The translations under genes and the position numbers were made by a program. A DNA stretch of 64,000 nt from Candidatus Sericytochromatia bacterium (GTDB taxonomy: Bacteria; Cyanobacteriota; Sericytochromatia; S15B-MN24; UBA4093), in contig JAKFBU010000047.1 in the NCBI GenBank assembly GCA_036676985.1, forward strand, positions 1 to 64,000, in the 5' to 3' direction. Below are positions 20,136 to 32,069 of this stretch, piece after piece; the stretch's first letter is position 1, and each line of letters opens with the position of its first letter. Under the pieces are notes generated by a model. That model was given only the letters and a program-made list of their open reading frames with translations, did not search any database and was not told where the DNA came from.

Positions 20136-21071
20136 TTGGGAACACGTCCAGAATTCGTCCGGCAGGCCATGCCCAAGACCCCGTTGCCCAGCCTCGCGTG
20201 GGAGGAGCTGGCGCCCCGTGGCGTTCACTCCATCTACGACCCGTTCATGGGGACGGGTAACAGCCTCTATGCCTTCAAGCGCTACGGCGTGAAGGTGATC
20301 GGCAGCGACCTGCTCGAGAGCACCTGGTGCTCGGCACGGGCCCTCAACGAGAACAACACCGTTCGGCTGAGCGACGAGGCGATCGCGAGCTTCGGCGCGG
20401 CCGAGGTCCCCAACCTGTCGACCTTCACCCGCTTCGCGAGCTGGGTCGAGCGCGGCTTCTTCACCGAGAGCCAGGCCGCGTGGCTCGGCTACTGGCGCGA
20501 GCGCTTCGAGGCCCTGGAGGGCTACTCTCGGGGCCTCGCGGTGGTCGCCATGGGCTGGATGATCGACAACTGGCTCAAGCCGCTGGAGCAGCCGGGCGCT
20601 ACATGCGCTGGTCCGACGGCCCTCACCCTCTTCCTCAAGCGCGCCAATCAGTGGGTCTGGGACAACGGCCAGGTCAACGAAATGCTGCGCGGCAACCCGG
20701 TGGACCTCGCCGAGAGCGTGCAGGCCGACGCCTGCTACCTCTACCTCGAGCCGCCCATGGTCTCGGTCGATCTTCGCACCTGGCTGACGGAGGCATGGGT
20801 TCAGGGGCGTCCCGAGGCGGATCTCGCCGACTTCTACCAGGACAATCCCTTCTTCGCGCCCCTGGAGGACTACCGGGTGCGCGTGACGAACCTGTTCGAG
20901 CGCCTGGAGCACATCCGGGTCTGGGCCATCCAGTACCGCACCGAGGAGCTGGACCTCCTGTGGGGCGATCATCCGAGCTGGCTCTCGGGCCGCGACCTGG
21001 TGGCCCAGCAGCACCTCGGCATGGGACCGGACGCTTCGGGCGAGATGCTGTGCGTCGCCCTGCGGCCCTAG
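20136..21071 (+). CDS. DNA adenine methyltransferase-like protein (D12/Dam class) with atypical motif IV
   Basis: Motif I YDPFMGTG, motif II VIGSDL; motif IV reads LYLEPPM instead of YLDPPY. Confidence 0.6.
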   Translation: MGTRPEFVRQAMPKTPLPSLAWEELAPRGVHSIYDPFMGTGNSLYAFKRYGVKVIGSDLLESTWCSARALNENNTVRLSDEAIASFGAAEVPNLSTFTRFASWVERGFFTESQAAWLGYWRERFEALEGYSRGLAVVAMGWMIDNWLKPLEQPGATCAGPTALTLFLKRANQWVWDNGQVNEMLRGNPVDLAESVQADACYLYLEPPMVSVDLRTWLTEAWVQGRPEADLADFYQDNPFFAPLEDYRVRVTNLFERLEHIRVWAIQYRTEELDLLWGDHPSWLSGRDLVAQQHLGMGPDASGEMLCVALRP

Positions 21072-21225: not shown

Positions 21226-23049
21226 ATGGCTGACAACATCAACCTTTCGGGCAACCGCGCGAGCACGGGCCGTCTCGGCTCCCTCTCGCAGACGGGTCGG
21301 CTCGACCCCGCCGCCCTCAATCAGGCGGCGCCTCCGGCCGAGGGCATCGTCAAGAAGGCCAAGACCGACACGTTGCGCCTCAGCGACGCCGCCGGGGCCG
21401 CGAGCCCCGTGGACGCCGCGGGCGTCCGCGACCTGGCCGAGAAGGTCGGGGCGGTGCAGAACGAGCAGAAGCAGGTCGCCGAGCTGCAGGCGCGCATCAC
21501 CTCGCTGGTGCCGGGCGGCGTCAAGTTCGAGACCACCGACGGCGCCAGCTGGTCGTCGACCGAGCTCAAGAATCTCCAGGAGGTCGTCGAGGGCATGTCC
21601 CCGAGCGATCGCCAGGCCCTCTCGGGCATGAACTTCGTCCGCGCCGGCAAGGTGGACCTCGCCGAGGGGGCGGACGCCTCTGCCAACAAGCATCTGGGCG
21701 AGGGCTTCGCTGACGAGGGAGCCGCCGCCGTCGCCAAGACCCAGGGCGAGAGCAAGGGCATCATGGGCCGCCTGGGCGAGTTCGCCCGCCACTCGGCCGA
21801 GGTGCTAGAGGGCATCCCCGTCCTGCGCTACATCGGTCGGGCCCTCAAGAGCCTCTTCGGCCAGCAGGCCCCCGAGCGCGCCATCGTGTTCGGCAACTCG
21901 GGCTCGCTCATCTCCAAGCAGATCTGGGCCCATGAGATCGGCCACCAGGTCCAGATGGTCAACCGCGGCTGGAACCCCGAGAAGATCGCGGAGTTCGCCA
22001 AGCTCTCCGGCTGGACCGAGACCTACGGCGGCAAGCAGTACGGCGCGGACGGCGTGGACAACCGCACCGGCGGGCGCCTGCTCTTCGACGAGCAGGTCCT
22101 CAAGTCCGCCCGGACGGACAACTTCGTCTCCAAGTACGCCATGACTAACCCCACCGAGGACTTCGCGGAGAGCTACCAGGCCTTCCTGAGCGACCCCAAG
22201 AAGCTCATGGAGCTTGCTCCCGAGAAGTTCCTGTTCATCAACGCCCAGTCGCAGAAGTACAGCGCGAGCGAGGTCAAGGGCTACGCCCAGCAGGTTGGCC
22301 AGGATCTCGACGCGGTGGCCACCGAGCTGACGCTCAAGAGCGGCCTCAAGCAGGAGACGTTGAACGCCGTCCTGATGGTCAACGGTGTGTCGCCCGACAA
22401 GGGTGCGCTCATCTCCGAGGCGGCCTCCAACCTGTCGTCGGGCGATGCCCTCAGCCAGGCGTGGGCCAAGATCGCGACCGACGCCAAGGATCCCCAGGCC
22501 GCCGCGCGCCTCGTCTCGGATCCGGCGGGAGCCCTGGGCGAGGTCTGGGGCAAGCTGAGCCGCGAGGAGCAGGCGCTCGTATCGGATCCGAAGTTCCTCC
22601 AGGCCCGGGTCGACGAGTTGCAGGCGGGCTTCGCGAGCTACCGCTCGTCGGCGGACGCCGCCCAGACCGAGCTCTATCGCAAGGGGATCTCGAGCCTGAT
22701 GGACCGCCTGATGAACGATCCGGCCAGCCGCCAGTCGGCCGCCCAGGCGCTGCAGGGTCTCACCCTGCCCGCCGAGGTGGTGGAGGCCTTCACGAGCAAC
22801 CCCGGAGCCTTCGCCAAGCTCGGCGCCGAGCTCGGCGCCCTCCTGGACAATGCCTCGGCCGAGGAAAAGCAGCGCTACGGGCAGAACCTCAAGAAGGCCC
22901 TGCCGCAGCTGGGTCCCGAGCACTTCTCGGCCCTGGCCATGGCGCTCAACAACAAGCAGGATGAGGCCTTGGCCGCCAAGATGATTCGTCAGGGCTTCGA
23001 GACCGGGTCGGTGGTCTACCAGGGCGGTGGCGATCCCCCGGGCATCTAA
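21226..23049 (+). CDS. Putative zinc metallopeptidase-domain protein with helical C-terminal repeats
   Basis: WAHEIGHQ (HEXXH) plus FVSKYAMTNPTEDFAES third-ligand motif; GGAGG SD. Confidence 0.7.
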   Translation: MADNINLSGNRASTGRLGSLSQTGRLDPAALNQAAPPAEGIVKKAKTDTLRLSDAAGAASPVDAAGVRDLAEKVGAVQNEQKQVAELQARITSLVPGGVKFETTDGASWSSTELKNLQEVVEGMSPSDRQALSGMNFVRAGKVDLAEGADASANKHLGEGFADEGAAAVAKTQGESKGIMGRLGEFARHSAEVLEGIPVLRYIGRALKSLFGQQAPERAIVFGNSGSLISKQIWAHEIGHQVQMVNRGWNPEKIAEFAKLSGWTETYGGKQYGADGVDNRTGGRLLFDEQVLKSARTDNFVSKYAMTNPTEDFAESYQAFLSDPKKLMELAPEKFLFINAQSQKYSASEVKGYAQQVGQDLDAVATELTLKSGLKQETLNAVLMVNGVSPDKGALISEAASNLSSGDALSQAWAKIATDAKDPQAAARLVSDPAGALGEVWGKLSREEQALVSDPKFLQARVDELQAGFASYRSSADAAQTELYRKGISSLMDRLMNDPASRQSAAQALQGLTLPAEVVEAFTSNPGAFAKLGAELGALLDNASAEEKQRYGQNLKKALPQLGPEHFSALAMALNNKQDEALAAKMIRQGFETGSVVYQGGGDPPGI

Positions 23050-23058
23050 GGAGCAACG

Positions 23059-24018
23059 GTGGCCACGACCCGCGACGTCTTCGACCTCCTACACCAGTAC
23101 CTGGGAGCCCAGATCGGTGCCGGCACGCTGCACGAGCTGCAGCGTGCCGTCCTTGCGAAAAGCCGTGCGGCCTTCGACCGCGACGGACACTGGCCCATCG
23201 TGGACTTTCCCCTCGCGATCCATCGGCAGCTGAACGGCGACCCACGGTCGGGGACGGCGATCGCCGCCGCATGCCTGCTCTTCTACTCGTTCGCCGACGT
23301 CATCGACGACGCCCAGGACCACGACCTCACGCCGGATCCCTGGGAACGCTGGGGCTGGGAGCAGGCCGTCAACACGGGGACGTCCCTCCTTTTCCTCTGC
23401 CTGCAGTCCTTGCACGACCTCTTGCCCCCGGACAAGGTGGGCCCCGTCTCCGAGATCTTCGTGCGGGCGGGTTTCGCCATGACGGCGGGGCAGCACGTGG
23501 ACCTCATCGGGCAGGGGGGCGAGATCCCGGGCGTCTCGGAGTACCTCCAGATGATCGAGGGCAAGAGCGGGGCCTCGTTCGGGGCCTACGCGGCGGCCAC
23601 CGCCGCCCTGAACGGCCTGCCCTCGGCGCGCGTCAAGGACTTCGCGGAGATGGGGCGCGCGCTCGGCGGGCTCTTCCAGATGCTCAACGACACCTACGAG
23701 CTCTGGGACTCCCGCTACAGCCCGGACTACGCCAACGGCCGCCTGTCGTTGCCCATCGTGCTCGCCCACGAGCAGTTGCAGGGCGTCCTGCGCGAGGCGT
23801 TCCTCGCCCTTTTGAGCGAGCCGCCCTCACTCGAGCTGCAGTACGACTTGGTCATGCTCATGGAGCGGGGCGGGATCAAGGAGTATGCAACGCTGCGAAT
23901 CGAGGTATACAGGAAGCGGGCCCAGGCCCTCGCTCAGCAGCTCGGTGTTGCGGGCGATCCCTATTTGAAGCGGTTGTTGGAGATCCCGGCGTTCCCAGAG
24001 ACCCCGATCGCCATCTAG
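23059..24018 (+). CDS. ComQ-like isoprenyl transferase (polyprenyl synthetase fold)
   Basis: FARM DVIDDAQDHD without the following RR, GQHVDL, KSG, degenerate second motif QMLNDTYE. Confidence 0.75.
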   Translation: MATTRDVFDLLHQYLGAQIGAGTLHELQRAVLAKSRAAFDRDGHWPIVDFPLAIHRQLNGDPRSGTAIAAACLLFYSFADVIDDAQDHDLTPDPWERWGWEQAVNTGTSLLFLCLQSLHDLLPPDKVGPVSEIFVRAGFAMTAGQHVDLIGQGGEIPGVSEYLQMIEGKSGASFGAYAAATAALNGLPSARVKDFAEMGRALGGLFQMLNDTYELWDSRYSPDYANGRLSLPIVLAHEQLQGVLREAFLALLSEPPSLELQYDLVMLMERGGIKEYATLRIEVYRKRAQALAQQLGVAGDPYLKRLLEIPAFPETPIAI

Positions 24019-24041
24019 CCCGACAGGAGAGAATCACGGCG

Positions 24042-26576
24042 ATGCCCAAGTCCAACCGGCCCCTCACCTGGGCCTTCAATGCCCTCATCGTGGCGTGCCT
24101 CGCGGTCTGGATCGTGGCGGTCGCAGGCTCCTTCAAGCTCCTAAACCAGCCGTTCCCGGGCTTCCGGGTCGAGACCACGCTCACCATCTCGGCCCTGGGC
24201 GATCCGACGTGGACCGGGGCAACCGCCAAGGTCCAGCAGTTCGATCGCTTGCTCGAGGTGGACGGACAGGAGCTCCGGGTGGCCGACGACCTGACGCGTC
24301 ACGTGCGCTCGGTGCCGGTGGGCACTCCGCTCGCCTACGAGGCGGTGCGCGCCGGCAAGCCCGTGTCCTTCACGGTCCCGACCCAGACCTTCACGCTCGG
24401 CGACTGGGTGCGCAGCTTCCTGCCCCTCTTCCTGGTGGCCTTGCTGCACCTGCTGGTGGGGGCGATCGCCTTCTGGATGAAGCCCGGCAGCGTCTCGTCG
24501 CGGGTCCACCTGCTCATGAACGCGGCGACGGGCCTCTTGTGCGCGCTCATCAACGACTACGACGCGGGCCACCAACTCTCGCGCCTTTACCTCGCCTCCA
24601 TGCCCCTGATGGGTAGCGCCTACCTGCACCTGGGCCTGGTCTTCCCGGACTCGCCGCACTGGCTCAAGAAGCGCCCCTGGCTGCATGGCCTTCCCTACCT
24701 GCCGGTCTTGCTCCTGGTGCCCGTGTGGGAGGCCGTCTACCGCCCGGTCGGGTTCGCGGCCAACCGCGAGAGTTTCGACCTGCACATGAGCTTCCAGGAT
24801 CTGGGGGTGCTCTGGATCATGGTGGGCCTGTTGGCCCTCATCCTGAGCATCGTGGTGCGCGCCGTGCGCACCAAGGCGGCCCTGGCCAAGCAGCAGATCA
24901 AGGTGGCGCTCTTCGGGGCGGCCTTGGCCTACCTGCCCGGCGCCATCCTCTGGATCGTGCCGTACCTGGCCAACGTTAACTCGCTGGACAGCTCCGGCAT
25001 CCTGGTCAACCTCTCCTTCGCGTGCTTCGTCTTCTTCCCGCTGTCGATCGCCTATGCCATCGTCCGGCACAAGATGTTCGACATCGACCTGGTCATCAAG
25101 CGCACGGTCGTCTACGCGACGGTGGTCGCCGCCCTGACGGGCGTCTACTTCCTCACCATCGCGGGCGTGACCTGGACCGTCGAGCGGCTGTTCGGCACCT
25201 CCGGCAGCACGGCCGGCAACATGCTCGCCACGGCCATCGTCGCCCTCGCCTTCGTGCCCGTCCGCAACCGCACCCAGTTCGTCATCGACCGGCTCTTCTA
25301 CCGAAACCGCTACGACTTCCGGAGCGTACTCAGCGGCTACACCCGCTACACCAAGGAGAACCCGGAGCTCGAGGCGGTGGTGGACCAGTACGTGCAGGTC
25401 GTCACCGAGACCATGCACCCGCGCCACATGTCGATCATGGTGCGCGATCCCAAGACCATGGCCCTGCACGTCTACAAGACGTCTGGCCTCTCGGTCTTCC
25501 CCGAGGAATTCGCCATCCCCTCCGACAGCCCGGAAGTGGCCGAGCTCTTCCAGTCCCGCAAGACGGGCATGCGCCCCTCCAAGGCCACCACGCGCCAGCT
25601 CTCGCACATGGACGCGTTGGGCATCGCCTTCTGCGTGCCGCTCGAGATCAAGGGCGAGATCCTGGGGATGATCAACATCGGGCAAAAGCTCTCGGAGCTC
25701 GACTACACGGCCGAGGACCAGCAGCTGCTCATCAACATGGGCCAGCAGCTCGCGAGCGTCATCCGCATCAACGAGATGACCAAGGCCGAGGTCAACCGGG
25801 CCCGGCTCGACGCCGAGCTCGAGACCGCCCGCCACATCCAGGCCTCCTTGTTGCCGACCGCGGCCCCGGCGCCTCTGGGCCTCGAGGTGATGGGCTCCTC
25901 GGAGTCCGCCTACGAGTTCGGCGGCGACTACTACGACCTGGTCACCCTGCACGACGGGCAGCTGCGCGTGGTGGTGGGCGACGTGGCGGGCAAGGGCGTG
26001 CAGGCGGCCATGGTCATGGCCATGGCCAAGAGCTGCTTCTTCAACCAGGTGCGCACCAACCCGGACCTGCCCACGGTCATGCATGCCATCAACACCATGA
26101 TCGTCGAGACCATCGACGACAAGAAGCACCGCAAGACGTCCCTCATCTACGCGGCCATCGACCCCGACCAGAAGACCCTGCGCTACACCTGCGCCGGCCA
26201 CCAGCCGCCGCACTACTACAGCGCGGCGACCGGCCGGGTCGAGGAGCTGCCCATCCCGGGTTCCTTCCCCTTCGGCGCCTCCAAGCTCGCCAAGTACCAG
26301 GAGGTGACGGTCCCGCTGCAGACGGGTGATGTGCTCGTCTTCTACACCGACGGCATCACGGAGGCCGAGAACCCGGATCACGAGATGTTCTACCGCATCG
26401 ACGAGGGCCCGGACGGCGCCGAGATCGTGCACGACCAGCTCCGGACCGTGCTCGAAGCGAGCCACGCCGAGAGCGCCCATGACATCCATCGGCGCATCCT
26501 GCGCGCCGTCAGCGCGTGGGTGGACGGAGGTCCGCAGGCGGACGACATCACGCTGGTGGTCGTGAAAGTCCTTTAG
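24042..26576 (+). CDS. Membrane sensor phosphatase: TM-PDZ-multi-TM-GAF-SpoIIE (PP2C)
   Basis: FDRLLEVDG (PDZ), about 8 hydrophobic helices, GAF-like segment, GGDYYD, GDVAGKG, FYTDGITEA, DDITLVV. Confidence 0.88.
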   Translation: MPKSNRPLTWAFNALIVACLAVWIVAVAGSFKLLNQPFPGFRVETTLTISALGDPTWTGATAKVQQFDRLLEVDGQELRVADDLTRHVRSVPVGTPLAYEAVRAGKPVSFTVPTQTFTLGDWVRSFLPLFLVALLHLLVGAIAFWMKPGSVSSRVHLLMNAATGLLCALINDYDAGHQLSRLYLASMPLMGSAYLHLGLVFPDSPHWLKKRPWLHGLPYLPVLLLVPVWEAVYRPVGFAANRESFDLHMSFQDLGVLWIMVGLLALILSIVVRAVRTKAALAKQQIKVALFGAALAYLPGAILWIVPYLANVNSLDSSGILVNLSFACFVFFPLSIAYAIVRHKMFDIDLVIKRTVVYATVVAALTGVYFLTIAGVTWTVERLFGTSGSTAGNMLATAIVALAFVPVRNRTQFVIDRLFYRNRYDFRSVLSGYTRYTKENPELEAVVDQYVQVVTETMHPRHMSIMVRDPKTMALHVYKTSGLSVFPEEFAIPSDSPEVAELFQSRKTGMRPSKATTRQLSHMDALGIAFCVPLEIKGEILGMINIGQKLSELDYTAEDQQLLINMGQQLASVIRINEMTKAEVNRARLDAELETARHIQASLLPTAAPAPLGLEVMGSSESAYEFGGDYYDLVTLHDGQLRVVVGDVAGKGVQAAMVMAMAKSCFFNQVRTNPDLPTVMHAINTMIVETIDDKKHRKTSLIYAAIDPDQKTLRYTCAGHQPPHYYSAATGRVEELPIPGSFPFGASKLAKYQEVTVPLQTGDVLVFYTDGITEAENPDHEMFYRIDEGPDGAEIVHDQLRTVLEASHAESAHDIHRRILRAVSAWVDGGPQADDITLVVVKVL

Positions 26577-26588
26577 CCCCGAGACAAG

Positions 26589-26620
26589 GCGAGCCCCCGA
26601 CCGAAAGGTCGGGGGCTCGC
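26589..26620. terminator. Perfect 14-bp hairpin with GAAA loop between convergent genes
   Basis: gcgagcccccgacc-gaaa-ggtcgggggctcgc. Confidence 0.8.
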
Positions 26621-26633
26621 AGCTCGACGGTCG

Positions 26634-26936
26634 TCACTTGTTGGTCCGACGCTTGCCTTCCTCGATCAACTCCTTGACCTTTTGTCCGCCCTTGTGTCCA
26701 ATTTCGGAGTAGAACTCGGGACCATATTTTTCCTTGGTCACATTCCCTCCGATCTCGCCACCCTTGTGGCCGATCTCGGAGTAGAACTCGGGACCGTACT
26801 TCTCTTTGACCGTCTCGCCACCCTTGTGGCCGATTTCGGAGTAGAACTCGGCACCGTATTCATCCCTGACCTTCTCACCGCCGAGATGTCCCGCTTCCCG
26901 GACGGTCATGTCGCCTTTAACTTTACGTTCAGGCAT
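26634..26936 (-). CDS. KGG-repeat general stress protein (Em/GsiB/YciG-like)
   Basis: MTVREAGHLGG followed by three YG(A/P)EFYSEIGHKGG repeats. Confidence 0.88.
   Translation of the reverse strand: MPERKVKGDMTVREAGHLGGEKVRDEYGAEFYSEIGHKGGETVKEKYGPEFYSEIGHKGGEIGGNVTKEKYGPEFYSEIGHKGGQKVKELIEEGKRRTNK
26690..26860 (-). repeat. Coding tandem repeat (3 copies, 60-72 nt period) in the KGG protein
   Basis: cccttgtg..c.at.tcggagtagaactcgg at 26690, 26761 and 26821. Confidence 0.8.
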
Positions 26937-27205: not shown

Positions 27206-28921
27206 CTACGGCTTCGGAAGGGTGAACCAGAAGGTGGCGCCCTTTCCCAGTTCGCTCCTGACGCCGATGGTCCCGCCATGGGCTTCCACCAGGGTCTTGC
27301 AGAGGCTGAGGCCAAGGCCCGTTCCGCCTTTGCGCGAGCCGGCTTCCAGCTGGCCAAAGGGCTTGAAGAGTTTCGGAAGATCCTCCTGGGCGATTCCGGG
27401 GCCGGAGTCTGTCACCTCGAAGCGGTAGGACTCCTCTGTGCGGAGGACCCGTAGGGTGATGTCGCCCGCCGGGGGGGTGAACTTGATGGCGTTGCTCAGA
27501 AAGTTGCCAATGACCTGCTCGATGCGCTGGGCATCCACCCGCAGGACCAGCGGCTCATCCGGAAGGGAGAGACTCAGGTCCAGGTTCGCCTCCTCGAGCT
27601 GGAGGCGGAAGCTGTCGGTGATCTCTTGGATCACGGGCACGAGGTCGGTTTCCTGGAGCTTGACCTGGAAAGTGCCCGCCTCGATGCGCGCGAACTCCAG
27701 CAGATCGTCCACCAAACGCTTCATTCGCAAGGTCCCATTTTGGATCTGCCGGACGAACCCCGCCTGCATCGACGTTAGCTCCCCGCCCACCAAGTCTTCC
27801 AGCAACTCCGTATTGCCGATGATCGAGGTCAGGGGGGTTCGGAGCTCGTGCGAGAGGGAATTGATGAAGCTCCTCCTCAGGCGCGCGAGCTCCTTTTCCT
27901 TCTCGAGCTCAATGCCCTGGTGGATGATCACCTCTTCGGCGAGCTGCCGCTCCAGCTCCGCCTCGATGCGCCTTGCCACGGTTCTGAGGATAATCTCGAT
28001 GTTGTCGATCATGGTCATGGGGGCCACGTGCGCCACCGCGACGATCCCCAGGGGGGACCCATCGGTCCGGAAGAGCGGCATCCCCGCATAGCTCTCCAGG
28101 CCGAGCTCCCTCACGAAGGGATCCCGGGGAAAGGACTCTTTCAGGTTACGCGGGTAGGCGAGGAACTTGTTGCCGTATATGAGCTCACATGGGGTCCCCT
28201 CCATGCTGTAGCTGAAGTCTTCCTGCACCTTTCCTGGTCTCAGCCAGGTAACGGCGCGGATGACCCCCGGCTCGGCGGTCTTCACCTCGATGAGAACGTG
28301 AGACACGCCAAGCGCCGTGGAAAGGTACTGGGCAATCGCGTTGAAGAAGGTCCTGCCAGTGGCGGAGGAGAAGCCCTGGGTCAGCTCGTTCAGGGCGTTT
28401 TCGAGCCGCTTGTGCTCCGTGATATCCCGGCCAATGCCGATGAGCCCACGAAGATCCCCATCTCGGGCGAAGTAGGGGAACCGGATGGTCTGGATGATGC
28501 GAGTCGAGCCGTCGCTGGGGAAGGCCTCCTCGAATATGCCAGATTGCCGGCTGGTGAGGACGGCCTGATCGGCCTCATATAGGGCAGCAGCGAGCTCTGG
28601 CGAGACGAAGTCTGCGTCACGCTTGCCCAAGATCGCCTCGCGCGTCAGCCCGAGGGCCTTGGCGCCGGCAGGGTTGATCAGCTCATAGCGGCCCTGGAGG
28701 TCCTTGATGAAGATGACGTCGGGCGCGCCCTCGACGAGCGCCTGGAACTCGGCCGTGGCCTCGAGCAGGGCGTGCAGGGGATTCGTTCCCCCGTAAGGTC
28801 CCGCGAAAAGTTCCTTGAGGGTTCCTTCGAGCGCTTCAGGCTCGGTCACTCCGAAGGCCCTGCTCAGGGTTCGAAACTGATTGACGGCCATCTTGGTGAC
28901 ATCGAGGAAGTCTTGGCTCAT
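27206..28921 (-). CDS. PAS-GAF sensor histidine kinase
   Basis: PAS (IFIKDLQGRY), GAF, SHELRTPLT, NAIKF and GGTGLGL motifs. Confidence 0.93.
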   Translation of the reverse strand: MSQDFLDVTKMAVNQFRTLSRAFGVTEPEALEGTLKELFAGPYGGTNPLHALLEATAEFQALVEGAPDVIFIKDLQGRYELINPAGAKALGLTREAILGKRDADFVSPELAAALYEADQAVLTSRQSGIFEEAFPSDGSTRIIQTIRFPYFARDGDLRGLIGIGRDITEHKRLENALNELTQGFSSATGRTFFNAIAQYLSTALGVSHVLIEVKTAEPGVIRAVTWLRPGKVQEDFSYSMEGTPCELIYGNKFLAYPRNLKESFPRDPFVRELGLESYAGMPLFRTDGSPLGIVAVAHVAPMTMIDNIEIILRTVARRIEAELERQLAEEVIIHQGIELEKEKELARLRRSFINSLSHELRTPLTSIIGNTELLEDLVGGELTSMQAGFVRQIQNGTLRMKRLVDDLLEFARIEAGTFQVKLQETDLVPVIQEITDSFRLQLEEANLDLSLSLPDEPLVLRVDAQRIEQVIGNFLSNAIKFTPPAGDITLRVLRTEESYRFEVTDSGPGIAQEDLPKLFKPFGQLEAGSRKGGTGLGLSLCKTLVEAHGGTIGVRSELGKGATFWFTLPKP

Positions 28922-29119: not shown

Positions 29120-29764
29120 CTAGTGGACGGAGCGGATGACGCCCACGACGCGTCCCTGGACCGTGACGGAGTCCACGTAGATCGGATCCATGGCGGAATT
29201 GGCGGGCTGCAGGCGGATCCGGCCGGATTCGCGGTAGAGCCGCTTGAGGGTCGCCTCGCCGTTGTCGAGCAGGGCGACCACGATCTCGCCGTCGCGGGCG
29301 GTGGCCTGCGGCTTCACGATGACCATGTCGCCCGGCATGATGTGGTCCTCGATCATGCTCTCGCCCTTGACCTCCAGGACGTAGTTGTTGCCGGTCGCCC
29401 ACATGCCGGCAAGATCCAGGGTCTCGGTGCCGTCCCCGATGGCCTCGATGGGGCGGCCCGCCGCGATGCGCCCCAGGATGGGCAGCCTGGGGGCCTCTTC
29501 GGGAAAGGGGATGGGGGCCGGAGCTGGGGCTGCGGCCGCGGGCGTGCCCTCGAGGAGCTGGATGGCGCGGTTCTTGCCCTTTTCCCAGCGGATCAGCCCC
29601 CGCTCGGCCAGGCCCGTGAGGTGGTAGTGGATGGTCGAGGTGGAATGCACGCCCAGCGCCTCGACGATCTCGCGGATCGACGGCACGTAGCCCCGCTCGG
29701 CGATCGCTCGCCGCAGGTAATCGAGCACTTCTTGTTGGCGCCTCGGCAGCTTCGTGTCGACCAT
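29120..29764 (-). CDS. lexA: SOS repressor LexA
   Basis: PSIREI HTH, GRIAAGRP cleavage site, GESM (Ser) and ATLKR (Lys). Confidence 0.96.
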   Translation of the reverse strand: MVDTKLPRRQQEVLDYLRRAIAERGYVPSIREIVEALGVHSTSTIHYHLTGLAERGLIRWEKGKNRAIQLLEGTPAAAAPAPAPIPFPEEAPRLPILGRIAAGRPIEAIGDGTETLDLAGMWATGNNYVLEVKGESMIEDHIMPGDMVIVKPQATARDGEIVVALLDNGEATLKRLYRESGRIRLQPANSAMDPIYVDSVTVQGRVVGVIRSVH

Positions 29765-29786
29765 CGGAGCACTCCTCGCAAAAATT

Positions 29787-29800
29787 GAAACAAAGGTTCG
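29787..29800 (-). promoter_or_regulatory. LexA (Gram-positive/Cheo-type) SOS box
   Basis: CGAACCTTTGTTTC on the minus strand, resembling CGAAC-N4-GTTYC, just downstream of the -10. Confidence 0.7.
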
Positions 29801-29810
29801 AACCCGTCCC

Positions 29811-29840
29811 ATTCTAGGGAACGGCGCCGCCTCTTGTCTA
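29811..29840 (-). promoter_or_regulatory. lexA sigma70-like promoter
   Basis: TAGACA-N18-TAGAAT. Confidence 0.55.
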
Positions 29841-30031: not shown

Positions 30032-30056
30032 TCCCCTTGCAACATCACCCTTTTAG

Positions 30057-32069
<2,013 letters not shown>

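Follow-up and report, generated by a model that had tools for sequence, protein, structure and literature searches.

What does an operon do that places an aberrant member of the isoprenyl diphosphate synthase (IPPS) superfamily between a zincin-like protein and a membrane-bound sensor phosphatase? The question is raised by a window of 64,000 nucleotides from a Candidatus Sericytochromatia bacterium (GenBank assembly GCA_036676985.1, contig JAKFBU010000047.1), in which three co-oriented genes follow each other on the forward strand. These are gene A (21226-23049, +), encoding a zincin-like protein of 607 amino acids, gene B (23059-24018, +), encoding an IPPS-fold protein of 319 amino acids that is hypervariable among close relatives, and gene C (24042-26576, +), encoding a membrane sensor phosphatase of 844 amino acids. 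The gaps between them measure 9 nt (A-B) and 23 nt (B-C), and Shine-Dalgarno-like purine runs (ggagg, aaggag and aggaga) stand 5' of the three starts, as a preliminary description of the locus had reported. That description regarded the operon as a candidate ComQ/ComP-like system signaling through a prenylated peptide. The triad is best read as a signaling module specific to Sericytochromatia. It contains a hypervariable cassette with conserved flanks on both sides, made up of the last residues of A, of B and of roughly the first 330 residues of C. Because these final residues of A, B and the outer and transmembrane (TM) half of C co-vary amid conserved surroundings, a producer and its receptor can be proposed: B may make or mature a lineage-specific prenylated ligand that is read by the sensor half of C. 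This reading is tentative, and its probability is judged to lie somewhat below even.

The cassette becomes apparent when loci of the same genus are compared. Of 11 within-genus pairs, 10 show low identity in B (45-57%), in the PDZ-like domain of C (51-65%) and in the TM part (63-68%), whereas the flanks in the same 10 pairs reach 83-93% for A (73-89% between the window and locus L016), 89-95% for the GAF domain and 85-94% for the PP2C domain. Between the window and L016, identity is 89% in the zincin domain of A, 74% in the C-terminal half of A, 57% in B, 56% in PDZ, 67% in TM, 90% in GAF and 89% in PP2C. In the same order, the values are 90, 83, 49, 55, 65, 95 and 91% for L017-L018 and 93, 89, 47, 51, 67, 95 and 91% for L021-L059, which the remaining pairs of the five-member g2-like group resemble. 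The exception is L023-L025 (85, 86, 71, 90, 89, 88 and 86%), a pair with identical A tails. The edges of the cassette are sharp in three genera, where sliding windows locate one at B's first codons and the other near residue 330 of C. As a control, a canonical synthase was compared over the same genomes: it is 85% identical between G000 and G001, 74-75% to genus g4 and 63-65% to g2, and the corresponding values for B are 57% (G001), 48-51% (g4) and 30-31% (g2). The feature that marks a specificity cassette, namely a maturation enzyme and the membrane half of a receptor that are hypervariable between conserved flanks, is present here.

Nei-Gojobori estimates describe the same block at the codon level. 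In six of seven pairs, nonsynonymous divergence (dN) is 0.35-0.55 and synonymous divergence (dS) 0.7-2.2 in the cassette, against 0.04-0.12 and 0.38-0.57 in the flanks. The ratio dN/dS of the cassette remains below 1, at about 0.2-0.5. Since dS is raised together with dN, the cassette alleles are older or imported, and also less constrained. Trees of A and of residues 331-844 of C recover the genera with short tips, whereas in trees of B and of residues 1-330 of C the tips are 5-10 times longer and the genus clades are unsupported. When B and the N-terminal part of C are combined in one tree, L023 and L025 are joined with a support of 100/100.

Gene B belongs to PF00348 (65 bits, E 7.6e-18), with a profile match that begins only at position 40. 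The NCBIfam models that match it are synthase models, all far below threshold and none of them ComQ. The first of the aspartate-rich motifs (FARM) is DDAQD (residues 83-87; 23305-23319, +), and in place of the second (SARM), whose DDxxD form in chain-elongating synthases is not found in B, there is a pseudo-SARM, NDTYE (residues 210-214; 23686-23700, +). The protein contains DVIDDAQDHDLTPDPW, QMLNDTYE and GGIKEYATLRIEVYRKRA, so the FARM, the degenerate second motif and the C-terminal motif pointed out earlier are all in place. The missing RR loop was likewise seen correctly: aligned with the geranylgeranyl diphosphate (GGPP) synthase 1wy0, B shows a four-residue gap at RRGK, and NDTYE stands opposite DDVLD. 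Both the RRG(K) loop and the GGKRxRP motif are absent in all 21 B-like sequences aligned. In the superfamily, the RRG(K) loop after the FARM and the N-terminal GGKRxRP motif bind isopentenyl diphosphate (IPP). Across 80 sequences of the B family, no variation is seen at D80, D83, D87, G144, Q145, D148, G171, D211 or D223 and hardly any at K169 and Q207. Within the pseudo-SARM of the relatives only D211 is invariant, the first position being N, S, T or G and mostly one of the last three. Judged by these motifs, B keeps the residues with which the superfamily holds diphosphate and metal, and those for IPP binding are gone. Without a GGKR loop, an RRG loop and a second Asp-rich motif, B appears unlikely to elongate chains. 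The genome also encodes two canonical synthases, which keep GGKRLRP or GKSIRP, RRG and DDLLD; consequently, B is a third, aberrant member.

The structural relatives of B include enzymes with two kinds of acceptor. By sequence, the Pyrococcus GGPP synthase 1wy0 is the closest solved relative (49.6 bits), and the second is 9v4g-9v4j (38 bits, E 1.1e-8, about 20% identity); no PDB match of B points to ComQ. The available part of the StheQ preprint (10.64898/2026.08.29.745113) identifies 9V4J as the indole prenyltransferase Ord1. An AlphaFold model of B built with 80 sequences has a predicted local distance difference test score (pLDDT) of 96.8, and its best fold matches are GGPP synthases and Ord1, at TM-scores of 0.72-0.80. 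As both match about equally well, the fold does not separate the functions. Ord1 (0.74-0.79 to the B model) shares the IPPS fold and prenylates an aromatic acceptor rather than IPP. It differs from B in having "DD" at the SARM position of their alignment and in acting on a small molecule, and we know of no sensor linked to it. In a 1.84-billion library, a B-family profile finds at least 1351 cluster representatives at E <=1e-30. Among these 1351, the best 150 have D[DN]xxDxEL...W where FARM-RRG would stand and [SGN]DxxD where SARM would stand. Any names given to members of this branch are automatic labels, either "GGPP synthase" or "geranylgeranyl pyrophosphate synthase", and the ESM Atlas clusters for B offer only the generic "polyprenyl synthetase"; a tblastn search of plasmids with a wider B-family member gave no match. 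B is thus part of a large uncharacterized branch of PF00348 that is routinely misnamed GGPP synthase.

Hydropathy and Pfam give gene C the order TM1 (residues 11-29), extracytoplasmic stretch (30-120), about nine further hydrophobic segments up to residue 407, GAF and SpoIIE. The hypervariable half (residues 1 to about 330; 24042-25031, +) holds TM1, the PDZ-like domain and the next TM helices. The conserved half includes the GAF domain (442-574; 25365-25763, +; E 4.9e-8) and the SpoIIE/PP2C domain (638-843; 25953-26570, +), which matches PF07228 at E 1.7e-43, with 149 bits against a cut-off of 25. Its motifs GDVAGKG, TDG and DD are presumably catalytic and hold the metal-binding Asp residues. 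The best solved relative is Rv1364c, and the TM-GAF stretch partly resembles PrsK. The PDZ assignment is weak in C itself, with no Pfam match and with NCBIfam matches of E 0.009-0.08 that cover the PDZ portions of RseP, DegP and HhoA, while precomputed PDZ_2 or PDZ_6 matches exist in many C homologues. Of the architecture proposed earlier, the many TM helices and the GAF-SpoIIE output therefore stand, and the PDZ domain is better seen in the homologues than in C. In other phyla, the TM-PDZ-multiTM module is fused to HisKA or HisKA_3 kinases, class-3 adenylate cyclases and a GGDEF domain; given such varied outputs, it is a general input module. There are no STAS or RsbW-like genes beside C; elsewhere the genome has 8 STAS, 5 strong RsbW-like and 6-7 SpoIIE matches.

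Gene A was overlooked in the preliminary description as a conserved zincin-like protein. The product is soluble (maximum 19-residue hydropathy 0.86), and in the predicted model (pLDDT 76.7) residues 1-63 are disordered, about 64-350 form the zincin-like domain and 350-600 are all-helical. The zinc-binding HExxH motif reads HEIGH (236-240; 21931-21945, +). The presumed third zinc ligand, of the gluzincin type, lies in EDFAES (311-316; 22156-22173, +), whose Glu we take to play this role as in M34/Mx-type zincins. Across 38 sequences, E237, H240 and D312-E315 never vary and H236 is kept in at least 90%, and HExxH with a downstream Glu ligand, a feature of Peptidase_Mx/M34-like gluzincins, is present and conserved in the A family. 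Neither a curated cut-off nor a clear fold match to these gluzincins is reached by A: the Pfam matches to Peptidase_Mx and Mx1 (E about 5e-4) stay below threshold at 20 bits versus cut-offs of 25.6 and 27, and Foldseek matches of the model are weak (E 0.05 or worse), with the Mx structure 4l7a best and M34-type zincins including the Pro-Pro endopeptidase PPEP-1 among them. Among the matches listed, 17 of 49 A homologues have a precomputed match to PF15887. The helical half also holds two stretches that resemble NHLP leaders (432-459 and 497-522; 22519-22791, +), found through a weak match of the NHLP-clan NCBIfam model NF038399 (E 0.0024, 17.9 bits versus a cut-off of 40). A complex prediction for A and B scored 0.00 against a mark of 0.32, which counts neither for nor against binding.

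The triad A-B-C is syntenic across an order of Candidatus Sericytochromatia. B-like genes occur in 29 of 41 related genomes (E <=1e-20) and, in a sample of the phylum (E <=1e-25), in 38 of the 47 genomes of the class versus 1 of 154 others, while all 49 clusters of A homologues come from Sericytochromatia-type metagenome-assembled genomes. The preliminary description had named a lack of synteny in other genomes as an outcome that would speak against its reading, and this outcome did not occur: the order A-B-C is kept in 11 of 20 loci around the B-like genes of 20 genomes. Of the nine other loci, three end at contig ends and six, from the distant family f6, have the B-like gene alone in an uninformative context. 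Small open reading frames (ORFs) upstream of the f6 genes were considered as candidates and look like off-frame noise. Among 14 species-representative loci, many of which are the same contigs as in the first set of 20, the triad appears nine times, a second operon type three times and a short contig twice. The metagenome loci examined were the first 14 of 79, and four of them have the triad (L057, L059, L061 and L065), B being matched at its position in L065 only weakly by a query from the second operon type and not by B itself. In genus g7, B was found in none of four genomes, yet A and C are present with a gap between them, and this gap gives a weak B-like match in L147 (E 4.6e-10) and no match in L146. 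In genus g3, searches detected no A (0 of 2) and no B (0 of 3). Two loci show further arrangements. At L052:2670-11431, on the same contig as L062, three tandem A-like genes precede a B-like and a C-like gene, an amplification of the zincin-like partner. At L148:6708-9667, in the sole cyanobacterium outside Sericytochromatia with a B-like gene, the pseudo-SARM is NDMES, and a neighboring gene encodes 604 amino acids, the N-terminal region of which presumably resembles a DUF4157-type zincin marker.

The second operon type consists of genes for a STAS protein, an RsbW-like kinase (HATPase_c_2), a B-like protein, an A-like protein of 983 amino acids and a soluble PP2C protein of 509 amino acids. 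It is found in five genomes, complete in L043 (8096-14496), L045 and L049 and cut by contig ends in L032 and L051, and two genomes (G011 and G017) have both operon types. The 983-residue protein is homologous to A, but SELAA stands at the site of HExxH and ADLGES at that of EDFAES. From the content of this operon it follows that SpoIIE-type phosphatases have the A/B pair as a conserved companion and that the output is probably partner switching, in support of the phosphatase output of this kind suggested earlier for C. No cassette is seen in a same-genus pair of the second type, in which identity is 82% for STAS, 77% for RsbW, 77% for the B-like, 71% for the A-like and 76% for the PP2C protein.

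Several known systems invite comparison. According to the available part of a ComQXPA census (PMC4008528), comQXP is highly polymorphic, with ComQ, ComX and the N-terminus of ComP variable and cytoplasmic ComP conserved, and the ComX precursor is encoded by an adjacent small gene and has a Trp within its last 5-10 residues; the word PDZ, a domain that the preliminary description ascribed to many ComP receptors, does not appear in that part. Like ComQXPA of Bacillus, the present locus has an IPPS-fold enzyme with a FARM and no true SARM, whose gene immediately precedes that of a receptor with about 10 TM helices, and its enzyme and the membrane half of its receptor are highly polymorphic while the cytoplasmic half is conserved. 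Unlike ComQXPA, it has no ComX gene and no conserved Trp, its output is a GAF-PP2C phosphatase instead of a HisKA_3 kinase with ComA, it includes an additional conserved zincin-like gene upstream, and the host belongs to the class Sericytochromatia of Cyanobacteriota. The available part of 10.64898/2026.08.29.745113 states that a pseudo-SARM NDxxx replaces the SARM in ComQ-type enzymes, reports N215 of StheQ as important and describes StheQ/StheX of the Chloroflexi member Sphaerobacter thermophilus, a case of ComQ-like prenylation outside Firmicutes. The earlier pairing of B with the sensor of C after the model of ComQ and ComP gains from their co-diversification, while the novelty claimed for a system outside Firmicutes falls away with StheQ/StheX. 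With StheQ/StheX and with PalQ/PalX of Paenibacillus alvei, the locus shares a host other than Bacillus and an enzyme of the same superfamily with a FARM and a pseudo-SARM, a likeness to ComQ, StheQ and PalQ that is drawn from motif descriptions instead of sequence comparison. Their precursors are short and have Trp at or next to the C-terminus, whereas the candidate here is the tail of the 607-residue A. In the available part of the PalQ paper, PalX, the substrate of PalQ, carries an NHLP leader, which may be set beside the two weak NHLP-like repeats of A as a lead only.

Like phosphatases of the RsbU, RsbP and SpoIIE type, C combines a SpoIIE/PP2C domain with an N-terminal input, and its sister operon adjoins STAS and RsbW-like genes. 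In Bacillus, accessory proteins control such phosphatases, RsbT acting with RsbU and RsbQ with RsbP. The accessory pair differs here, since it consists of an IPPS-like enzyme and a zincin-like protein, and no pairing of these two with a PP2C phosphatase turned up in the literature searched. The agr system of staphylococci has a hypervariable block made up of the maturation enzyme, the peptide and the membrane half of the receptor, between conserved flanks. The present locus differs from agr in that the protein families are unrelated and there is no separate peptide gene. Sericytochromatia are non-photosynthetic sister lineages of the cyanobacteria. To our knowledge, no cell-cell signaling has been described in them, and none turned up in the literature searched.

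In the proposed mechanism, B would act in the cytoplasm, binding a prenyl diphosphate through its first Asp-rich motif and transferring the prenyl group to an acceptor other than IPP, without IPP condensation. The product would be a lineage-specific prenylated ligand, presumably exported and sensed by C as a membrane receptor with its PDZ-like domain outside and about 10 TM helices. The signal might then pass via the GAF domain to the SpoIIE-type PP2C phosphatase, and A would serve as the zincin-like companion of B. The substrate of SpoIIE-type PP2C phosphatases is the phosphorylated STAS anti-anti-sigma protein of a partner-switching circuit, and the same may apply to C. As for the ligand, the C-terminal tail of A and a small isoprenoid are the candidate alternatives. 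The tail, YQGGGDPPGI (23017-23046, +), lies at the 5' edge of the variable cassette. In the clade of the window YQGGG[DE]PP is conserved and the last two residues are GI, GV, FA, FG, IA, AC, FP, CI, MM or NT. The cassette contains no separate precursor gene, and variation that follows the type of B is confined to the last 2-5 residues of A. In nine comparisons of A proteins at least 80% identical, for which the pairing of A with B proteins was itself deduced, B is 89, 72 and 71% identical in the three pairs whose last two A residues agree and 49-59% in the six pairs whose last two residues differ. It is conceivable, though quite doubtful, that the signal is this tail itself, A being a self-processing, enzyme-fused precursor whose tail would be prenylated by B, cut off by A's own protease domain and read as a lipopeptide by the PDZ-like domain of C. 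Self-processing precursors fused to an enzyme are known from the borosins, and the PDZ fold typically binds C-terminal peptides.

A number of observations weigh against the proposal of a producer and receptor. Besides the deduced pairing of A with B in the tail comparisons, the link between A tail and B type may be mere linkage because the two genes lie 9 nt apart. The tail has no conserved Trp, Cys or Tyr, and the Tyr of the window's clade is W, M, V or I elsewhere. No ComX-like ORF was found in 11 loci, no exporter gene lies near the operon, and hydropathy scan and domain search revealed no signal peptide and no TM or hydrophobic segment in A or B. Since the phosphatase of the second operon type is soluble, the A/B pair needs no membrane receptor and can work inside the cell, and at L058:6501-10931, the sole B-less dyad seen, about 100 nt separate A from C. 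The phylogenetic contrast is also limited. By approximately unbiased (AU) tests, monophyly of the genera is not rejected for either B or the N-terminal part of C (p 0.066-0.24), and inter-genus transfer of cassettes is therefore not claimed. The flanks disfavor an L023+L025 clade at a borderline p of 0.050, for a group chosen post hoc from the tree. Finally, a paralogous histidine kinase with the same TM-PDZ-multiTM sensor (L150, G000:C30:10394-12781, and L149, G001:C346, 68% identical) is 68-72% identical within genera with only a mild contrast between sensor and kinase: in 40-residue windows of the G000-G001 comparison, the sensor gives 58-82% and most of the kinase part 62-92%. Because this sensor also evolves fairly fast, part of the variability at the N-terminus of C is a trait of the sensor class.

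Several of these points fit better with an account in which no signal leaves the cell, and A and B are cytoplasmic partners of the phosphatase in the manner of RsbQ/RsbP or RsbT/RsbU. B would bind an isoprenoid or make a cofactor for the GAF domain, A would be a scaffold or regulator, and C would receive a separate input through its PDZ/TM part. The second operon type, with its B-like and A-like genes beside a soluble PP2C, STAS and RsbW-like kinase, agrees with this account, and its A-like protein without HExxH and EDFAES indicates that proteolysis is not essential to the partnership. The lack of export signals in A and B and the use of the PDZ/TM sensor as a general input module, on kinases, cyclases and GGDEF proteins of other phyla, are also in its favor. 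It nevertheless leaves unexplained why B and the outer and TM part of C diverge jointly within shared sharp edges while GAF stays 89-95% identical, and why the second type shows no cassette. It is regarded as rather unlikely, if still a serious contender. An arms race or relaxed constraint would explain the divergence without any ligand: the sensor half would be a target of phages or bacteriocins or simply fast-evolving, and B would be weakly constrained and caught in the same recombination block. The modest conservation of the paralogous kinase with the same sensor type, the cassette dN/dS below 1 and the dS that is raised as well, as for old or imported alleles, are compatible with such a history. 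However, the diphosphate and metal residues of B are invariant in 80 sequences, which indicates purifying selection for function; the edges of the block fall at the start of B and at one position of C in three genera; and the pair with similar B proteins (L023-L025) shares a similar sensor. This explanation is considered improbable.

The two remaining explanations tie the locus to what is already known of its enzyme family. A strict homologue of ComQ/ComX/ComP would prenylate a Trp near the C-terminus of a small precursor and have the pheromone read by C. The kept FARM with the pseudo-SARM "ND", as described for ComQ and StheQ, the gene of a multi-TM receptor directly downstream of B and a pattern of polymorphism resembling comQXP give this view its appeal, and in these respects the ComQ likeness seen earlier holds. 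It does not extend to the substrate, as small ORFs between the genes are absent, which had already been noticed, and inspection of 11 loci revealed none in an alternative frame that spans the B/C junction and is conserved; nor does the tail of A have a conserved Trp, which weakens the case for a peptide of the ComX type. In addition, most relatives begin the pseudo-SARM with S, G or T, although N215 of StheQ is reported to be important, the output is not HisKA_3/ComA, and the NCBIfam and PDB matches include none to ComQ. Strict homology is very improbable. Ordinary isoprenoid metabolism, with B as a chain-elongating or terpene synthase that adjoins a sensor gene by chance, is less credible still. 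It draws on the automatic GGPP-synthase names and on a GGPP synthase as the closest solved sequence relative. It is contradicted by the absence of GGKR, RRG and SARM from B, by the two canonical synthases already in the genome, by a linkage to A-like and PP2C genes that is kept in two operon architectures, and by a divergence of B that is extreme compared with the canonical paralogue.

If the reading of B and C as producer and receptor is true, the locus would add a third kind of strain-specific producer/receptor cassette to comQXP and agr, and would be the first to feed a PP2C partner-switching phosphatase. If the tail of A were the ligand, this would amount to pherotype-forming quorum sensing in non-photosynthetic cyanobacteria with a phosphatase and partner-switch output. 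The locus also offers a first functional handle on the large uncharacterized IPPS-superfamily branch and a natural series of alleles for studying the evolution of specificity.

The surroundings of the operon contain further features. Directly 5' of A lies a gene of 311 amino acids (20136-21071, +) with a weak, sub-threshold match to D12-class adenine methyltransferases, which is kept at this place in family f1 (49-87% identity). Downstream, C converges on the gene of a KGG/LEA_5-repeat stress protein of 100 amino acids (26634-26936, -), which is found 79-94% identical in the same position in L016, L021, L023, L058, L059 and L061. Between the two convergent genes, the perfect hairpin noted earlier is confirmed at 26589-26620 (no strand assigned): a GC-rich stem of 14 bp closes a GAAA loop, with a folding energy of -40.1 kcal/mol and a z-score of -5.9, and none of 200 shuffled sequences folds equally well. 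The hairpin is followed by no T-run and is for this reason omitted by the terminator scan; in a window of 62-70% G+C, the consensus scan of the region returned 0 promoter-like and 0 terminator-like sites. Beyond the KGG-repeat gene lies a PAS-GAF-HisKA-HATPase histidine kinase (27206-28921, -), the position of which is not kept in most related loci. It is followed by ordinary housekeeping genes, a LexA-like repressor (29120-29812, -) and groES-groEL (30037-32069, +).

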